This document shows, in pieces, positions 14,957-51,745 of a DNA stretch of 64,000 bases. This DNA comes from Candidatus Nanohaloarchaea archaeon (GTDB taxonomy: Archaea > Nanohalarchaeota > Nanosalinia > Nanosalinales > Nanosalinaceae). Below the pieces are notes generated by a model. That model was given only the letters and a program-made list of their open reading frames with translations, was not told where the DNA came from and made no database searches. The translations under genes were made by a program, and so were the position numbers. The stretch is taken from the NCBI GenBank assembly GCA_047617985.1, contig JBLGBS010000003.1:1-64000 (forward strand). The letters are read 5' to 3'. Each line of letters starts with the position of its first letter. The first letter of the stretch is position 1.

Positions 14957-15241
14957 ATGTCGACGGATACTGTGGACAATTGGGTTTCTGAATGGTCTGA
15001 AAAGGTTGATTCCTTAATTGAAGAGGTAAATGGAGACGAGATTAGAGTTGATCCGGACGATTATTCTGTAAGAGAGCTTCAAAACGGAGATTATGTCATA
15101 AGCACTCCGGGAAAAACATACCTGGTGTCTGAGGATAATATATCTGAACATCCAAAAGGTAGAAAAGCTGAAGGATATGATCTATATGACCAGGATATTG
15201 AGGAAGAGATTCGGGAAATGCTGGAGGATCAACTCCAGTAA
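14957..15241 (+). CDS. Hypothetical small acidic protein
   Basis: 94-aa ORF. It overlaps the convergent downstream gene by 13 bp. Confidence 0.4.
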   Translation: MSTDTVDNWVSEWSEKVDSLIEEVNGDEIRVDPDDYSVRELQNGDYVISTPGKTYLVSEDNISEHPKGRKAEGYDLYDQDIEEEIREMLEDQLQ

Positions 15242-16416
15242 TCTTTATCTAGAAGCTTCTCTCTATCCTCTACCTTTTCTTTTTCTCTAATCAGTCTCTT
15301 GATCTCCTCCTGACCCCGTGTGAAACCAATCATTACAGCTCCAACCAGGCGGTCATCGTTGAAAAATAGTCTGCGGTAATGGTCTTCTCCCTCATACTTT
15401 CTCGAAACCGGTTCGCCGTTCCAGTCGCCAATCGCTAGGAACTGGGCGCTGAAATGACCTACACCGTATGTATTCACATAGTCAAAGTCTTCATCTTCAC
15501 CAGCCATGTTTTTTCCAGCTGTCTCCCCCATCTCCTCTGAGTGATCCCAGGAACCGTTTACAGTTCGTTTCTCGAAAACCGGGGAGTAGTACTCCACCAT
15601 GTTGCCCGCTGAGTAGATATGCTCACTGGAGGTCTGAAGATTTTCATCAGTTTTGATCATCTCCGAACTGTTTTTCTCGACATCGAGTATATCAGAGTTC
15701 GGTGTCTGACCTATAGCAACAGCCACAGCATCACATCCATATTCCTCACCATTGCTTGCCTTGACCTGTTTAATCTCACCGTTCTCGGCTTCAAACTCTT
15801 CTACAACGGTATCAGTTATAATTTCAACGCCTTTTTCCTCAAGTTTTTGATGTATGATTTCGGCGCCTTTCTGATCGAGTCCTCTGCTCCACCAGCACTC
15901 ATCTTTGATCAGATAGTAGGTCTCTGCATCGTTCTGGGCATAAGCCATCGCAAGGTCAATCCCGAGTAAACCTCCGCCGGCAACAACCGCTTTATCTGCT
16001 CCCTCAGCGGATTCTTTGATTGTTTCCGCATCATCCATAGTCCACATGTAGTGCAGGTTGTCAAATCCTGTGTCCTGTGGAAGCTTTCGTGGGGAACCGC
16101 CTGTCGCGATTAAGAGTTTGTCGTACTCAAAGCTTTCTCCATCTTCTGTCTTCACTTTCTGATTATCTTTATCGACATTTTCTATCCTTGTTTCGAGGCG
16201 GAGATCGATATCTCTCTTTTCGTACCAGTTTTCATCGTGAACCCGGGTGTACTGTTTTGGAAGTGTGCCTTTCATGTAGGTCTTCAGCATGATCCGGTTG
16301 TACAGGGGTTCGGACTCCTCTGTGAAAATCTTTATCTCAGCTTCTTCATCATGTTCTCTGACCTCTTCTGCTGCTGTAGCCCCTGCTATCCCATCTCCGA
16401 TTATCACATGCTTCAT
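15229..16416 (-). CDS. FAD-dependent pyridine nucleotide-disulfide oxidoreductase (NADH oxidase / CoA-disulfide reductase-like)
   Basis: Two dinucleotide-binding motifs: VIIGDGIAGATAA (FAD) and AVVAGGGLLGIDLA (NAD). It also has the central LIATGGSP. Confidence 0.75.
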   Translation of the reverse strand: MKHVIIGDGIAGATAAEEVREHDEEAEIKIFTEESEPLYNRIMLKTYMKGTLPKQYTRVHDENWYEKRDIDLRLETRIENVDKDNQKVKTEDGESFEYDKLLIATGGSPRKLPQDTGFDNLHYMWTMDDAETIKESAEGADKAVVAGGGLLGIDLAMAYAQNDAETYYLIKDECWWSRGLDQKGAEIIHQKLEEKGVEIITDTVVEEFEAENGEIKQVKASNGEEYGCDAVAVAIGQTPNSDILDVEKNSSEMIKTDENLQTSSEHIYSAGNMVEYYSPVFEKRTVNGSWDHSEEMGETAGKNMAGEDEDFDYVNTYGVGHFSAQFLAIGDWNGEPVSRKYEGEDHYRRLFFNDDRLVGAVMIGFTRGQEEIKRLIREKEKVEDREKLLDKDYWS

Positions 16417-45396: not shown

Positions 45397-48354
45397 CTAA
45401 CACTTGCTGAACCCGCAGTCAGGGCACTTGTTGCATCCCTCGACTAGCTGGAGCATCCCCCCGCATTCTGGGCATTCCGGGTTTCCGCCGTTCTGAATGA
45501 TTGCTGCGGCGTCCGCCTTTTGCTCTTGGTCTGTCTTTGGCTGTGTTTCTCCGGTTGCTTCTGTGTCTGTTCCACCGAAGTTTTCGACGGTTTGCTGTGT
45601 GTCGTGCCCCATATGCCTTTTCATGGCTTCTGCGATTGCGTCAGGTACTGAGTGGATCTGTGTTCCCTGATCCCATGCGATCTGAGGTGACCGGATGTCG
45701 TCCAGCTGTTTCACTACTTCGTCTGCGTCCGCTCCAGTTCGAAGTGCCAGTGAGGTCATTCGGCCTAGTGCCTGTGTAAACGACTGTGTGTAGCCTCCTG
45801 ATTTTCCTAGGTTGGCGAAGACTTCGAACGGTCCGTTGTCTTCTGCGTCGTTGATTGTGACGAACAGGTCGCCGTACGCAGTCTCTATTTCCTGTGTGGT
45901 TCCTGAGACTACCTTTGGTCTTTCTTTGACTCCTTTGTTGGCTCCCATGCTTGTGTGGTCGCCGTTGCCGGAGTCATCTGCCTGGACATTTTCCTGTGTT
46001 ACTTCTTTCTCCAGTTCTTCCTTGTCTTCGACAGTTTCTGCTTCAACCCCGTCCTCTGTGTTGATGACTTTGAGGCCTGCTGTTTCCTTGATGCCTGTTG
46101 CTTCTGCGAATTCTTCTGAGGATACGAAGTCTTCGACTCCTCCTTTCTCTTCTACAAGTTCGGAGATTGCGTCGACTGTATCCATGTCAGTTACAGTGTT
46201 TTCTGCGTTGGTCTGCATAACTTGGACATCTCTTGTCCCGTCTCTGTAGACTGTCATGCCTTTGATTCCTAGATCGTAGGCGAGCATGTATGCTTCTCTG
46301 ACATCTTCTCTTGTTGCTTCGTTAGGGAAGTTGCAGGTCTTTGAGATTCCTGAGTGGTTGTGTGTCTGGAATGCTGCCTGGATCCGGACATGTTCTTCAG
46401 GTTTGACCTGGTCTGAGGTTTTGAAGATTTTCTTGATATGCTGTGGAAGGATCTCATCTGAAATGCTTTCGATTCCCTCCCATTCGTTGTTGCGCATCTT
46501 CTGTTCTGCGTCTTCCTTGACTTTCTCGACATCGACATTGTTTGCTGTTAGAGCTCTGATGAAGTAGTCATCGAACTCGACAAGCATGTCCTCTCCCTGA
46601 ATGTCTTTCGCTACATTCTTGAAGTAGGCGACCTGATAGATTGGTTCACATCCTCCTGAAGTGTTTCCAATCATTGAGGTGGTTCCGGTTGGTGCGATTG
46701 TGACGGTGTTATGGTTTCTCATCTTGATTCCGTCTTCGTACTCCTGTGGATCCATTCCGCCGGTGTATCTTCTGAACCATTCTTCGTGGTCGGTTGGGTT
46801 CGCCCATTTGGATTTCTCCCATTCGTCGAACTCTCCTCTGACATCTGCAAGTCTATTGGATTCTTCGATCGACCATTTTGTGATGAGTCTCTGGATTTCC
46901 TTTGCTGCGACAATTGATTCGTCTGACCCGTACTCGATTCCTAGCTGGATCAGCATCTGTGCGAATCCCATAAGCCCGAGTCCGACTTTTCTCATTGAGC
47001 TGACTTTGTCCTCAATTTCTTCAAGCGGGAAGTCAGACATTGTAACTACATTGTCGAGGAACCGTGTGCCTTTCTTTGCTATTTCCTCGAACTTGTCCAT
47101 TCGGAGTGCGTCCTGCATGTAGTCCTCCATCGCTTCCTCTAAACCTTCCTGTGTTGTGTAGTCGTAGTCCGGGTGGTTGGCTTTCCATTCGATCCAGTCG
47201 AGCCCCATTCCGTCTCCCTGGTCTTCTACCATCAGGGAAAGGTTGATGTGGCCGAGGTTGCATGCCTCGTAGTTTTCAAGCGGCTGTTCTCCACAAGGGT
47301 TTGTTGCCTCGATTCTGTGCTCCGGATGTTTCTCTGTGTCGAATGAGTGTTCTTTGTTAGTCTCATCGTACATGAAGAGTCCTGGTTCTCCGTTTCTCCA
47401 TGCTCCGTCGACAAGTGTCTCCCAGATAAATCGGGCTGGAAGTGTCATCTCTTCTCCGACTTCGAGGTCGAGATCGTATTCTTTGACTTCTTCTGAGAAT
47501 GTGGATGCGAAGTCTCTCCAGAAGTTGTCGTCCTTACCTTGGTCGGATCCTGCTGCTTCAGGGTACCATTCTTCATCGGAGTTGTAGAACTGTGCTGTCA
47601 TCTCCTTGACTTCGAACGGTTCGTCGGTTCGAGGGTTGATCAGTGTGTATTCCTCGTCGTTTTTGACGGCTTCCATGAAGTCGTCTGTTAGTCCTACAGA
47701 AATGTTGAAGTTGGAGAGGTTTCCTTCCTTTCTCTTTGCGGTTATGAATCGAAGGATGTCAGGGTGGTCGACCTTCATAATTCCCATCTGGGCTCCTCTT
47801 CTCTTTCCGCCCTGCTTGATGGTTCCACACATAGTATCGAAGACCTGCTGGAAGCTCATAGGCCCGGAGGATACTCCTCCTGTCGATCCTACAATATCTC
47901 CTTTAGGTCTCATTAAGTGGAATGGATATCCCATTCCTCCTCCTGACTGGAAGATCTTTGCTGCGTCGTGTACTTTGTTGAAGATTGAGTCCATGTCGTC
48001 TTCAGGGTGTACAACGAAACAAGCGGATAGCTGCTGGAGTTCTGCTCCCGCGTTCATCAGTGTAGGGGAGTTAGGCATGAACTCCAGGTTGCTCATCATT
48101 TCGAAGAATTCCTGCCAGCTGTCTTCATAATCGACATCATCGTATTCTTTGTCCGGCTGCGCGACATTTTTTGCAACCCTTTCAAACATTTCCTTTGGGG
48201 TTTCCTGCACTTCGCCGTTCTCATCCTTGATGAGGTAACGGGCAGGAAGTATCCTGTCGTGAGCGTTCTCTGTCAGTCTTTCTTCTACGGTTTCGCCTGT
48301 AACCCTTTTTACAGGTAGTTTAAAATCAGTTTTTTGCTTAGCGTTTGTTGCCAT
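45397..48354 (-). CDS. nrdJ: Adenosylcobalamin-dependent ribonucleoside reductase, class II
   Basis: The catalytic segment [21 protein letters not shown] and the C-terminal zinc ribbon CPECGG...CNKCPDCGF are typical of class II RNR. There are halophile-style acidic insertions and no intein signature. Confidence 0.85.
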
Positions 48355-48431
48355 TAAGAGTGTAACACCTTTTGTGAGTATGATTCTGATGTGAAATATG
48401 TGTGATTAAGTGAGCATGATTTGTGATGTAG

Positions 48432-48872
48432 TCAGCTTTTTTGAAGCTGTTCGGCTTCCCGGAGGAAGCTTTCAGCGTTGTCAAACGAGTCGTAGACCGA
48501 CGCGAACCTCATGTAGGCGACTTCATCTCTTTTCTTGAGTGCTTCTTTAACTGCTTCACCTATCTCTTTTGACTTGATCTCTGTCTCGCCCCGGACCTCT
48601 TTCTTTACTTCGTCTACGATTTCCTCTACTTCTGAGTTCGAAATTGAGGTCTTTTCTGTGGCGCGTGTTACTCCTTCGATAATCTTGTTTTCATCGAAGG
48701 TTTCCTCGGCACCATCTGACTTGATGACTTTAATATCCAGCTTTTCGGCGGTTTCATATGTTGTAAACCGTCTTTCACATTCAGAGCATTCTCTGCGTCT
48801 TCTAACCTTTTCGCAGGTTTCTCTGGTGTCTACTACTTTGCTGGAGTCGTTGTCACAGTAAGGGCATTGCAT
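48432..48872 (-). CDS. nrdR: NrdR-like transcriptional repressor (Zn ribbon plus ATP-cone)
   Basis: MQCPYCDNDSSKVVDTRE...RRRRECSECERRFTTYE aligns with the NrdR N-terminal zinc ribbon. The ATP-cone follows. It sits immediately upstream of nrdJ on the same strand. Confidence 0.8.
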   Translation of the reverse strand: MQCPYCDNDSSKVVDTRETCEKVRRRRECSECERRFTTYETAEKLDIKVIKSDGAEETFDENKIIEGVTRATEKTSISNSEVEEIVDEVKKEVRGETEIKSKEIGEAVKEALKKRDEVAYMRFASVYDSFDNAESFLREAEQLQKS

Positions 48873-48908
48873 CGGTATAGCCTCGTCTAACTGAAATTAA
48901 CATACTAG

Positions 48909-48944
48909 ATGTTGTGGAGAACCTTGTCCCCTCCCCCACAACAT
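48909..48944. promoter_or_regulatory. Perfect 9-bp inverted repeat ATGTTGTGG-N18-CCACAACAT in the nrdR upstream region, flanked by two shorter near-palindromes
   Basis: Read directly from the sequence. Arms are 48909-48917 and 48936-48944. AACAT-N5-ATGTT lies at 48899-48913, abutting a TTAATTT TATA-like element. CACAACATGTCGTG lies at 48937-48950. Confidence 0.5.
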
Positions 48945-49073
48945 GTCGTGCTTCTGTGACTTATTTACTCACGACTTTCTTATAAACCCTTTTGTGTTGG
49001 ATAATATTGAATATTCATTGAAGAGTAGCAAAATAGTGTCATTATTTAAAATCTGGAGTTTCCCGTTTGACAT

Positions 49074-49907
49074 ATGGACGGCGGATCCGCAGCAGAGAAG
49101 ACCATAGAGAAAATAACCAGAGAAAGAATGACCAAAATCGCAGAAATACAGGAAGACAGAAACGAGGTTTCTTCCAAAAACTGTTCTGATTTCAGGGGAG
49201 AAATAAGTTCCATAGTACCAAATATAGAAAAGGTCGAAATTGATACAGATACCGCCGGGCCAGCAGAGGGGAAGAACAGAAGAACATTCCAGGATGAGGA
49301 AAAGACACAGAGACTTGAGTCAGTCTATGAAACTCTTTTCGGGGAAGGCGGATTTGAGATATTAAGAGATCAGGAAGCTGAAGCAGTCCACGATCCTGCA
49401 AAAATGGGATCGCTCTCATATGAAGGGACAAAAGAGAGACTGCATAACTTCGGACTGCTGGAAGACAGCGAAATAACACAGACCGGATCCCTTATATATG
49501 AAAACTGGAGCGGAATAGAGGAATACCTTAGCTCCCAGGAGAGAGTAGAGGATATAAAGGAAGAAATCGGTGAAATGGGTATGCCTGGATTTCTGAGGCT
49601 TTCTGGAGTAGATGTAGAAGATACAGATAGCTACCTCAGAAACAAATCAAGGTTCGAGAATCAATGGATCCGAGAGCATGACGGAACAGTTGAACTTTAC
49701 ATGATCACAGATGCTCTTTACTCGAGCAAAGAAAACGACAGCGAGACATTAAGACTTCTAGAAGATGTTAAGAAAGGAGAAGTCAACCACCCTGAAGGAT
49801 ATGAAGAGATAGGGATCAGAGGAATAAACTCCAAGAAAGAATCCACACTTAACCTTGACGGGGAGAAAATCTACGGAAAAGTATTGGCCGACTACATGAG
49901 TTTTTGA
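49074..49907 (+). CDS. Hypothetical acidic protein
   Basis: 277-aa ORF. Confidence 0.4.
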   Translation: MDGGSAAEKTIEKITRERMTKIAEIQEDRNEVSSKNCSDFRGEISSIVPNIEKVEIDTDTAGPAEGKNRRTFQDEEKTQRLESVYETLFGEGGFEILRDQEAEAVHDPAKMGSLSYEGTKERLHNFGLLEDSEITQTGSLIYENWSGIEEYLSSQERVEDIKEEIGEMGMPGFLRLSGVDVEDTDSYLRNKSRFENQWIREHDGTVELYMITDALYSSKENDSETLRLLEDVKKGEVNHPEGYEEIGIRGINSKKESTLNLDGEKIYGKVLADYMSF

Positions 49908-49957: not shown

Positions 49958-51745
49958 ATGAAAATCGTCCCCGACACCTCGATCATAATTGATGGAAAAC
50001 TTTCCGAACTTGCAGAAAAAGGAGAGATAGAAGGAGAAATAGTTATACCGGAGTTTGTGGTGGACGAGATTGAGAACCAGGCCAACAAAGGACTGGAAAT
50101 CGGCTTCGCAGGAATAGAAGAGATCAAACAGATCAGAGAACTTGGGGAAGAAAAAGGATTCCAGGTTTCTTTCACAGGAAGGAAGCCGACAGATGAAGAG
50201 ATCAAGATGGCTTCAAGCGGGAGGATAGATGCTTTAATCAGAGATGTAGCTGAAGAGATGGAAGCCACCCTTTACACCGGAGATATTGTTCAGGCAAAGA
50301 TCGCTGATGCAAAAGGAATCGACCACAGACTGTTTGAAAAAGAAAGAGTTGAGACATTCTCACTTAAAGAATACTTTGATGATAAAACTATGAGCATCCA
50401 CCTGAAGCAGGGTTCAAAGCCTAAAGCCAAAAGAGGGATGCCCGGCGAGTTCAAACTTGAAGATATCAGCGAAGAGATTCTGGAGAAAGATGAGATCAAC
50501 GAGCTGATTCAGGAGACAATTGAGAAAGCCGAGATGAGCGATGATGGTTTAATCGAGATGCAGAAAGAAGGGGCCACAGTTCTACAGATCGGAAGGTACA
50601 GAATAGCAATTTCAAGACCGCCTTTCTCCGAGGCACCGGAGATCACAGCTGTTAGACCTGTCTCAAAGGTCTCCCTTGAGGACTACGAATTAACTGAGAA
50701 ATTGATGGAAAGACTGGATGAAACCGCTGAAGGAATACTGATCGCAGGAGCCCCTGGACACGGTAAATCGACTTTTGCACAGGCACTAGCGGAGCACTAC
50801 GAGCAGGAAGACCGAATACTGAAGACGATGGAGAAACCAAGAGACCTGGATGTAGGCCCGGATATTACACAGTACGCGGAGCTTGAAGGCGATATGGAGA
50901 ACACCGGCGACTTTCTACTGCTTGTCAGACCGGACTACACGATCTATGACGAGGTTCGGAAAACCAAGGATTTCGAGGTTTACTCAGACATGAGGATGGC
51001 TGGAGTAGGGATGGTCGGGGTAGTCCACGCATCCGAAGCAGTCGACGCTGTGCAGAGGCTGATCGGGCGAGTAGAGCTGGGAATGATCCCTCAGGTAGTT
51101 GACACGGTCGTCCATATCGAGAATGCGGAGGTCGCAGAAGTATACAAGTTAGAGCTAACCGTCAAAGTACCGGAAGGAATGACAGAAGAAGACCTTGCGA
51201 GACCGGTCGTCCAGATACAGGAACTGGAGAACAGCAAACCGGTATACGAAATCTACACATACGGAGAAGAAACAGTTGTCATACCTGTTGATGAGGAGAA
51301 AAGAGAGTCCAGTACCCGGAAACTGGCGAAAAAACAGTTGCTCCACGAACTATCCGGAAGAGTTGACAACCCTGAGATCGAGTTTATTTCAGACGAGCAT
51401 ATCCGGTTAATGGTTGATGAGGACGAGATCTCACATGTGATCGGATCCGGAGGAGAGAACATTGACAGACTTGAGGACGAACTTGGTCTAAACATTACAG
51501 TTGAACCTAAAAGCAAGACTTTGAAGAACGGCATCGACTTCCAGGTGGAGGAGCGAGGTAACTCCCTGATAATAGATGTCGGAACTGGTATGTCCGGAGA
51601 AGACATAGACGTTTACGACGGCGACGAGTTTCTTTTCACTGCTACAGTCGGGAAAAACGGAGAAATCTCCCTGACCAAAAACTCGGATCTGGCCGGTCGA
51701 GTACTGGGAAGCTACGAAGCCGGAAAGCTTGATGTGAAGGTATAA
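49958..51745 (+). CDS. PIN domain / PhoH-like P-loop ATPase / KH domain protein (COG1855-type)
   Basis: N-terminal PIN (MKIVPDTSIIIDG), Walker A GAPGHGKST, and C-terminal KH (VIGSGGENIDRLEDELG). Confidence 0.75.
   Translation: MKIVPDTSIIIDGKLSELAEKGEIEGEIVIPEFVVDEIENQANKGLEIGFAGIEEIKQIRELGEEKGFQVSFTGRKPTDEEIKMASSGRIDALIRDVAEEMEATLYTGDIVQAKIADAKGIDHRLFEKERVETFSLKEYFDDKTMSIHLKQGSKPKAKRGMPGEFKLEDISEEILEKDEINELIQETIEKAEMSDDGLIEMQKEGATVLQIGRYRIAISRPPFSEAPEITAVRPVSKVSLEDYELTEKLMERLDETAEGILIAGAPGHGKSTFAQALAEHYEQEDRILKTMEKPRDLDVGPDITQYAELEGDMENTGDFLLLVRPDYTIYDEVRKTKDFEVYSDMRMAGVGMVGVVHASEAVDAVQRLIGRVELGMIPQVVDTVVHIENAEVAEVYKLELTVKVPEGMTEEDLARPVVQIQELENSKPVYEIYTYGEETVVIPVDEEKRESSTRKLAKKQLLHELSGRVDNPEIEFISDEHIRLMVDEDEISHVIGSGGENIDRLEDELGLNITVEPKSKTLKNGIDFQVEERGNSLIIDVGTGMSGEDIDVYDGDEFLFTATVGKNGEISLTKNSDLAGRVLGSYEAGKLDVKV

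Follow-up and report, generated by a model that had tools for sequence, protein, structure and literature searches.

The window, as we call the whole 64,000-nucleotide stretch analysed here (contig JBLGBS010000003.1 of a Candidatus Nanohaloarchaea archaeon, assembly GCA_047617985.1), carries on its minus strand nrdR, predicted to encode the repressor NrdR, and immediately behind it nrdJ, the gene for a ribonucleotide reductase (RNR). Upstream of nrdR lie two predicted NrdR boxes, the sites bound by NrdR in bacteria, and a TATA box. The features of this region, listed from nrdJ upwards, are as follows:

45397 to 48354, minus strand: nrdJ, a class II (adenosylcobalamin-dependent) RNR of 985 aa with a C-terminal TSCPD domain and a Cys-rich tail.
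48355 to 48431, minus strand: the nrdR-nrdJ spacer, 77 bp, with the Shine-Dalgarno sequence AGGTG at 48370-48366.
48432 to 48872, minus strand: the nrdR coding sequence, 146 aa, Zn-ribbon in residues 1-40 and ATP-cone in residues 47-131.
48881 to 48884, minus strand: Shine-Dalgarno-like GAGG (GAGGC), AGAGGTAAC in most relatives (alignment A2).
48900-48894, minus strand: the TTAATTT element, at -28 to -22 from the ATG at 48872, unconserved in relatives.
48917-48902, minus strand: NrdR box 2, CCACAACATCTAGTAT, 6/6 conserved positions; rank 1 and 17.5 bits in the position weight matrix (PWM) scan.
48918 to 48935, minus strand: the linker between the boxes, GGGAGGGGACAAGGTTCT, 18 bp, G-rich and conserved.
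48951-48936, minus strand: NrdR box 1, GCACGACATGTTGTGG, 6/6 conserved positions; PWM rank 3 and 14.6 bits.
48980 to 48986, minus strand: TATA box TTTATAA, the candidate promoter P1 of nrdRJ, conserved in relatives.

The initial annotation of this DNA had placed a protein with a zinc ribbon and an ATP cone next to a class II RNR, upstream of it and on the same strand, and the Pfam, TIGR00244 and TIGR02504 searches agreed with it. The Zn-ribbon matched the Pfam family PF22811 over residues 1-40 (E=1.6e-15). The ATP-cone, on whose integrity that annotation had made its proposal depend, proved intact and nearly full-length (PF03477, E=2e-19, residues 47-131, profile positions 1-86 of 88), and the protein scored 161.8 bits against the TIGR00244 equivalog model (COG1327; cutoff 124.65). 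It contains two CxxC pairs (C3-x2-C6 and C29-x2-C32), and the four cysteines are invariant across 16 nanohaloarchaeal sequences, as are the DNA-specificity residues D15 and R17 and the RRRR motif for backbone contacts (R24-R27). A protein annotated as NrdR in a Candidatus Nanohaloarchaea metagenome-assembled genome (MAG) is 100% identical to the window NrdR. Among the best 120 homologues listed, identity ranged from 100% to 56%, and all those with a named source were nanohaloarchaeal, the cultured Candidatus Nanohalococcus occultus and Candidatus Nanohalovita haloferacivicina included. The best match among solved structures was E. coli NrdR (9fvr, E=1e-33); S. coelicolor NrdR (7p37) was matched with E=1e-26.

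The DNA-contact and nucleotide-site residues listed for S. coelicolor NrdR (PMC9110341) were traced in the window protein. The DNA contacts R12, D15, R17, R26-29 and R37 align to K12, D15, R17, R24-27 and R35, and the nucleotide-site residues V48, K50, E56, F58, K62, K69, F124, V127 and Y128 correspond to V49, K51, E57, F59, K63, R70, F123, V126 and Y127. The sole nucleotide-site difference singled out was R51 of S. coelicolor, replaced by S52 in the window NrdR; E. coli NrdR also has serine there. Among the 16 nanohaloarchaeal NrdRs, the DNA-contact residues and those of the inner and outer nucleotide sites are mostly invariant. Judged by these matches, the open reading frame (ORF) at 48432-48872 encodes a true NrdR whose ATP-cone is intact. 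The nrdJ product scored 716.5 bits against TIGR02504 (NrdJ_Z; cutoff 399.95) and contains the Pfam domains Ribonuc_red_lgN, Ribonuc_red_lgC and TSCPD. No ATP-cone was found in it by the Pfam search, hence in these organisms the cone resides on the repressor and not on the enzyme. No RNR gene other than nrdJ is visible in this archaeon.

The NrdR box of bacteria is partially palindromic and 16 bp long, with strong conservation at six positions (C4, A6, A8, T9, T11 and G13), and the boxes are paired with a separation of mostly 15-16 bp (PMC13584703, PMC9110341); linkers of 14-17 bp or 24-27 bp are functional. The initial annotation had taken the dyads upstream of nrdR for a likely operator, which is borne out inasmuch as they form parts of two predicted NrdR boxes. 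It had also held that none of them cleanly matched the NrdR-box consensus and that the operator might be divergent. Neither statement stands, since both boxes have all six positions and the operator is canonical by these positions, by the PWM and by the identity of a core to that of a synthetic box. The PWM scan that it had proposed was run on the window with a matrix made from ten boxes of E. coli and S. coelicolor for which binding had been shown by experiment (PMC13584703 Table 1). Of the 127,970 window sites scored, the two boxes ranked first and third, and the scores of both lie within the range of the ten training boxes. Box 2 shares its 10-bp core, CAACATCTAG, with the consensus-derived synthetic box ACACAACATCTAGTGG (PMC13584703), and the two sites agree at 13 of 16 positions.

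Taken alone, the six-position core CNANATNTNG is no more frequent in the 64 kb than expected by chance, with 13 occurrences. Among tandem core pairs with zero or one mismatch in total and a centre spacing of 30-35 or 40-44 bp, the pair upstream of nrdR is the only one in the window, and about 0.04 perfect pairs are expected by chance per 64-kb window. No further operator with at most one mismatch in total was found in the window, and pairs with up to two mismatches numbered 21 versus 27 expected by chance.

Two further results of the box searches are recorded here. A PWM derived from 72 bacterial nrdR loci was discarded; a perfect box pair lay near nrdR in just 2 of the 72. A lone NrdR-like box, GCACTACATGTGGACT (16039-16054, minus strand; PWM rank 2, 15.3 bits), is situated inside the ORF 15229-16416. 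It has no partner at any accepted spacing and is probably a chance match.

Conservation was assessed in 15 nanohaloarchaeal nrdR loci, the window included, which were gathered through a genome scan, a metagenome scan (7 loci) and protein-by-protein retrieval and whose NrdRs are 56-100% identical to the window protein. Two perfect six-position cores were present in 13 of the 15 loci, and in the other two, one core carried a single mismatch. The initial annotation had described TTAATTT as TATA-like, and this element is not kept in the relatives, whereas each of the 15 loci has TTTATAA, TATATAA or TATTTAA at a distance of 26-31 nt upstream of box 1 (28 nt in the window). Between this TATA box and box 1 the DNA is unconserved, and the stretch from box 2 to the ATG is variable, with a bimodal length of 25-30 or 42-46 nt. 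The Shine-Dalgarno-like motif ~10-16 nt before the nrdR ATG is conserved, and the same motif precedes other internal genes of the window.

The 60 nt upstream of 50 long window ORFs were examined for TATA-like hexamers, and these are concentrated at -28 to -33 relative to the start codons, which suggests that the mRNAs of the window are mostly leaderless. In genes lying close behind another gene, the hexamer gives way to AGGTG or AGAGGTA, located at about -17 to -11. From the spacing suggested by the leaderless genes, transcription of nrdR would start ~23-25 nt after its TATA box, near 48957-48955. Such a start would place box 1 at about +5 to +20 and box 2 at about +39 to +54.

One of the relatives, Nanohaloarchaea archaeon SW_4_43_9 (locus L062, 6001-6413), has an nrdR frame that stops after 95 codons, with the remainder recognisable downstream. 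The operator of this gene is intact despite the broken frame. The break may be either a frameshift/pseudogene or an error of MAG assembly.

The dyads of the initial annotation, as well as TTAATTT and the 77-bp spacer, were each found where it had placed them. These dyads are AACAT-N5-ATGTT at 48913-48899 (minus strand), the perfect 9-bp inverted repeat ATGTTGTGG-N18-CCACAACAT at 48944-48909, the dyad CACAACATGTCGTG at 48937-48950 (plus strand), which is the core of NrdR box 1, and the palindrome GTGTAACAC at 48360-48368 in the nrdR-nrdJ spacer. Bare dyads showed no excess over chance in the 64-kb window: there are 5 perfect inverted repeats of 9 bp (loop lengths of 3-30 nt) versus ~9.8 in simulated sequence, 70 dyads of the 5-N5-5 type and 230 palindromes of the 4+1+4 type to which GTGTAACAC belongs. 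The 9-bp inverted repeat is made up of the 3' half of box 1 and the 5' half of box 2, because consensus-like tandem boxes are always complementary. AACAT-N5-ATGTT is off-centre with respect to box 2. Its right arm and most of GTGTAACAC are not conserved in the relatives, so that the dyad conservation put forward as a check holds for the NrdR boxes and fails for the rest. The significance of the dyads is their membership in NrdR boxes and not dyad symmetry.

The spacer between the two genes varies from 15 to 148 bp in the relatives, and only AAGGTG, the Shine-Dalgarno sequence, is conserved in it. Of the spacer palindrome, the AGGTG part is thus retained as a ribosome-binding sequence and the remainder is a product of chance. 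No NrdR box was detected in the spacer with one mismatch allowed, nor was a conserved TATA box. With the Shine-Dalgarno sequence as the only element kept, nrdR and nrdJ are most likely co-transcribed, as in the nrdRJ operon of S. coelicolor. In every relative examined, nrdJ lies directly downstream of nrdR.

The linker between the boxes measures 18 bp in 9 of the 15 loci, the window among them, 17 bp in one and 16 bp in five, which gives box-centre spacings of 34, 33 and 32 bp, respectively. In the 13 non-redundant loci, it holds 1.0-1.17 bits of information per position, compared with 1.2-1.5 bits in the boxes and 0.2-0.5 bits in the flanking non-coding DNA. The pattern GGGGG-A-GGGG-N4-5-GTTCTCC occurs once in the window. 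The outer parts of the linker (GGGA and TTCT) add ~4 pairs, two of them G-U, to the complementarity of the two boxes. Behind the GGAGG of the linker, inspection by eye revealed no start codon of a small ORF within ~12 nt. The sequence of bacterial linkers is reported to be neither conserved nor important (PMC13584703). As for their length, good binding in vitro was reported with linkers of 15-18 bp for E. coli NrdR and of 15-17 bp for S. coelicolor NrdR, and L. monocytogenes NrdR also binds an 18-bp linker (PMC12051234).

We propose that nrdR and nrdJ form an autoregulated operon under a tandem NrdR operator of canonical type, a short way downstream of an archaeal TATA box, and we hold this to be very probable. 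Observed are the protein's identity, the matches to the NrdR box together with their conservation, the fixed distance between the boxes and the TATA box, and the operon synteny, and on these the proposal builds. The transcription start, nucleotide-dependent DNA binding and repression itself are argued by analogy and would operate as follows. As in bacteria, ATP would occupy the ATP-cone's inner site in NrdR, and rising dATP or a falling energy charge would bring dATP into the outer site. The tetramer loaded with dATP and ATP would then clamp box 1 and box 2 through its Zn-ribbon pairs and bend the DNA sharply, while NrdR with ATP only would assemble into larger oligomers unable to bind DNA. 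NrdR bound from about +5 onward may clash with the archaeal RNA polymerase, and either recruitment or escape of the enzyme would be blocked, with nrdR and nrdJ both turned off. The circuit is of a known type in an unusual host, and genome annotations already name the protein NrdR; in the literature searched, no description of its operator was found for Nanohaloarchaea or other DPANN.

Several points weigh against this proposal. A leader of ~85 nt, as counted from an inferred start, would be unusual in a mostly leaderless genome. With 18 bp, the linker lies at the limit of what bacterial NrdRs accept, an E. coli reporter was derepressed with linkers of 18-24 bp (PMC12051234), and a conserved linker sequence is not predicted by the bacterial model (PMC13584703). 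The experimental studies of NrdR in the literature searched are bacterial only, none being archaeal. The conserved linker leaves room for a tentative addition, to which we give limited credence: it might be a separate cis-element, such as a site for a second factor, a leader hairpin resembling a Shine-Dalgarno/anti-Shine-Dalgarno pair, or a DNA-shape element that aids NrdR across 18 bp at molar intracellular salt. If so, the apparently only RNR of Nanohaloarchaea would be under two-input control, unlike what is seen in bacterial NrdR operators.

The initial annotation had also allowed that the dyads may be RNA hairpins. The inverted repeats would then serve mainly as a hairpin in the nrdR 5' leader, acting on mRNA stability, attenuation or translation instead of or besides protein binding, with the 3' half of box 1 and the G-tract paired with UUCUCC and the 5' half of box 2. 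The operator indeed folds in 13 of 13 non-redundant loci, with energies of -12 to -21 kcal/mol, and, owing to G-U pairs, 11 of the 13 have a sense strand that folds more stably than the antisense strand (means of -17.2 vs. -13.4 kcal/mol); the conserved linker ends GGGA and TTCT lengthen the stem. Complementarity is, however, inherent in tandem consensus-like NrdR boxes, and the 89-nt leader does not surpass its shuffled counterparts in stability (z=-0.63; of 200 shuffles, 44 fold equally well or better). Few pairs vary on both sides (RNAalifold covariation term of -0.58), the predicted fold differs between the loci with 16-bp and 18-bp linkers, and no Rfam match was found in 48200-49200. A role primarily as an RNA hairpin seems quite improbable to us.

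A different objection concerns the promoter. If nrdR were transcribed without a leader or with a short one from TTAATTT at 48900-48894, box 2 would abut the BRE (the recognition element of transcription factor B, TFB) and the TATA element, and NrdR would block the TATA-binding protein (TBP) and TFB, not the polymerase. The position of TTAATTT fits this idea, -28 being where the TATA-like elements of most window genes begin (-28 to -33), and several relatives have an A/T-rich patch near that place. TTAATTT is not conserved as a TATA box, with GCTGATCT in its stead in L062, and the bimodal distance from box 2 to the ATG often leaves box 2 clear of a proximal TATA element. Moreover, the conserved Shine-Dalgarno sequence at about -16 to -10 implies a leadered mRNA, and the distal TTTATAA is retained in 15 of 15 loci at a near-fixed distance to box 1. 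We consider initiation from the proximal element unlikely and retain P1 as the candidate promoter of the autoregulated nrdRJ operon.

The history of this operon was the remaining question raised by the initial annotation, which had regarded NrdR as uncommon in archaea and the gene pair as possibly acquired together by lateral transfer. NrdR has in fact been reported for 22% of the genomes of archaea (PMC13584703). Halobacteria are known to have nrdR-nrdAB operons, which were described as being of bacterial origin (PMC3019208). We also found NrdR in contigs of Aenigmatarchaeota, Woesearchaeota and other DPANN. The notion of a recent acquisition of nrdR-nrdJ from bacteria draws on the ~50% identity of the window NrdR to NrdRs of Clostridia and other bacteria, on the bacterial type of the boxes by PWM and on the bacterial descent of the Halobacteria operons. 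It conflicts with the class-wide synteny of nrdR-nrdJ and the neighbouring genes and with the occurrence of NrdR in other DPANN lineages. The phylogeny proposed by the initial annotation was run for NrdR, and in this neighbour-joining tree of a short protein, which has no support values, the nanohaloarchaeal NrdRs formed one clade nested in no sampled bacterial group. Given the synteny and the single clade, any transfer would be ancient and not recent; we regard a recent one as highly improbable, and a bacterial origin in the distant past as possible.

Other DPANN loci were also inspected for NrdR boxes. In L006, L023, L053 and L065 (Aenigmatarchaeota, Woesearchaeota and Nanoarchaeota contigs), one clear NrdR box lies ~20-65 nt from the nrdR start, and no obvious second box was seen at the usual spacing.

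The nrdRJ system of S. coelicolor (PMC9110341, PDB 7p37/7p3f) has the same gene order as the window, nrdR followed by nrdJ, and is autoregulated through two 16-bp boxes upstream of nrdR. Its NrdR shares D15, R17, the RRRR motif and the two-site ATP-cone residues with the window protein, and the box cores are nearly identical. The boxes of S. coelicolor cover the -35/-10 region with a 15-bp linker, whereas those of the window lie downstream of the TATA box of a TATA/BRE-type promoter, inside the predicted ~85-nt leader, and are joined by a conserved linker of 18 bp. The interdomain linker of the protein has 4 residues in S. coelicolor and 7, as in E. coli, in the window NrdR. E. coli NrdR (9fvr; operators of nrdHIEF, nrdAB and nrdDG) also shares with it the KS(D/N) variant of the beta-hairpin, which is KR in S. 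coelicolor, and box 2 of E. coli nrdEF, CAACTACATCTAGTAT, differs from window box 2 at 2 of 16 positions (PMC13584703 Table 1). Unlike in the window, the E. coli nrdR gene stands apart from the RNR genes, three operons are controlled by its product, and the spacers are 15-16 bp.

The nrdR-nrdA/B operons of Halobacteria, located on plasmids or a second chromosome (PMC3019208), likewise belong to high-salt archaea and have nrdR as the first gene of an RNR operon. They show the window's order of TATA box, box 1, box 2, Shine-Dalgarno sequence and ATG, with perfect six-position cores. In the Halobacteria plasmids L100-L104, the cores were found ~110 nt upstream of nrdR, 29-30 bp apart, with linkers of 13-14 bp. 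These linkers are not G-rich and are shorter than the bacterial norm, whereas the nanohaloarchaeal ones are longer. The Halobacteria operons further differ in encoding a class I RNR and in having box 1 ~11 nt after a TTTAT-type TATA box, where it overlaps the start site. They were reported as bacterial imports (PMC3019208), in contrast to the nanohaloarchaeal unit, which is chromosomal and class-wide. Since Halobacteria share the layout of the operator, the arrangement is not peculiar to Nanohaloarchaea.

The region upstream of the nrdR promoter contains these additional features:

49008-49017 and 49025-49033, read on the minus strand: the palindrome TGAATATTCA and the motif TTTTGYNAC, respectively, between the divergent promoters.
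49074-49907, plus strand: a divergent gene of 277 aa with a TATTTAAAA element at -31, a leaderless-type position.
49958-51745, plus strand: a 595-aa protein with PIN, T2SSE-type ATPase and KH domains, found beside the nrdR region in all relatives examined.

The synteny across Nanohaloarchaea, which extends to the cultured Candidatus Nanohalococcus and Candidatus Nanohalovita, comprises nrdR-nrdJ, the divergent gene (~280 aa), the PIN/T2SSE/KH ATPase gene and genes for DUF389 and CBS proteins. The 277-aa product of the divergent gene gave no Pfam or NCBIfam match. Most relatives have a gene of ~230-310 aa at this position, and the products of two of them gave weak Pfam matches of the helix-turn-helix (HTH) type, HTH_23 and HTH_29 in L090 and wHTH-PRTase_assc in L096. 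The divergent gene possibly encodes an uncharacterised regulator. The perfect palindrome TGAATATTCA, which occurs once in the window, is placed upstream of the nrdR TATA box at a distance of ~22 nt, and TTTTGYNAC lies immediately upstream of the divergent gene's TATA box. Most of the 15 loci retain the two motifs (alignment A2), which could be sites of another regulator. In locus L094 (5490-9554), nrdJ encodes 1354 aa and contains an intein (Pfam Intein_splicing and LAGLIDADG_3), which the window nrdJ does not have.

The window and its 14 relatives present a clean archaeal case, with one repressor, one operator, one RNR operon and a TATA box that can be recognised. Candidatus Nanohalococcus and Candidatus Nanohalovita, which are among the host organisms, are available in co-culture. 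Unusual at the locus are the conserved G-rich linker of 16-18 bp and the predicted position of the operator inside a long leader of a mostly leaderless genome. For annotation, the bacterial NrdR-box models carry over unchanged to these archaea if linkers of 16-18 bp are allowed. The system appears suited to asking how a repressor that bends DNA by ~180 degrees blocks an initiation complex of the TBP/TFB/RNA polymerase type, and whether the dATP/ATP switch operates in a salt-in, host-dependent DPANN cell.

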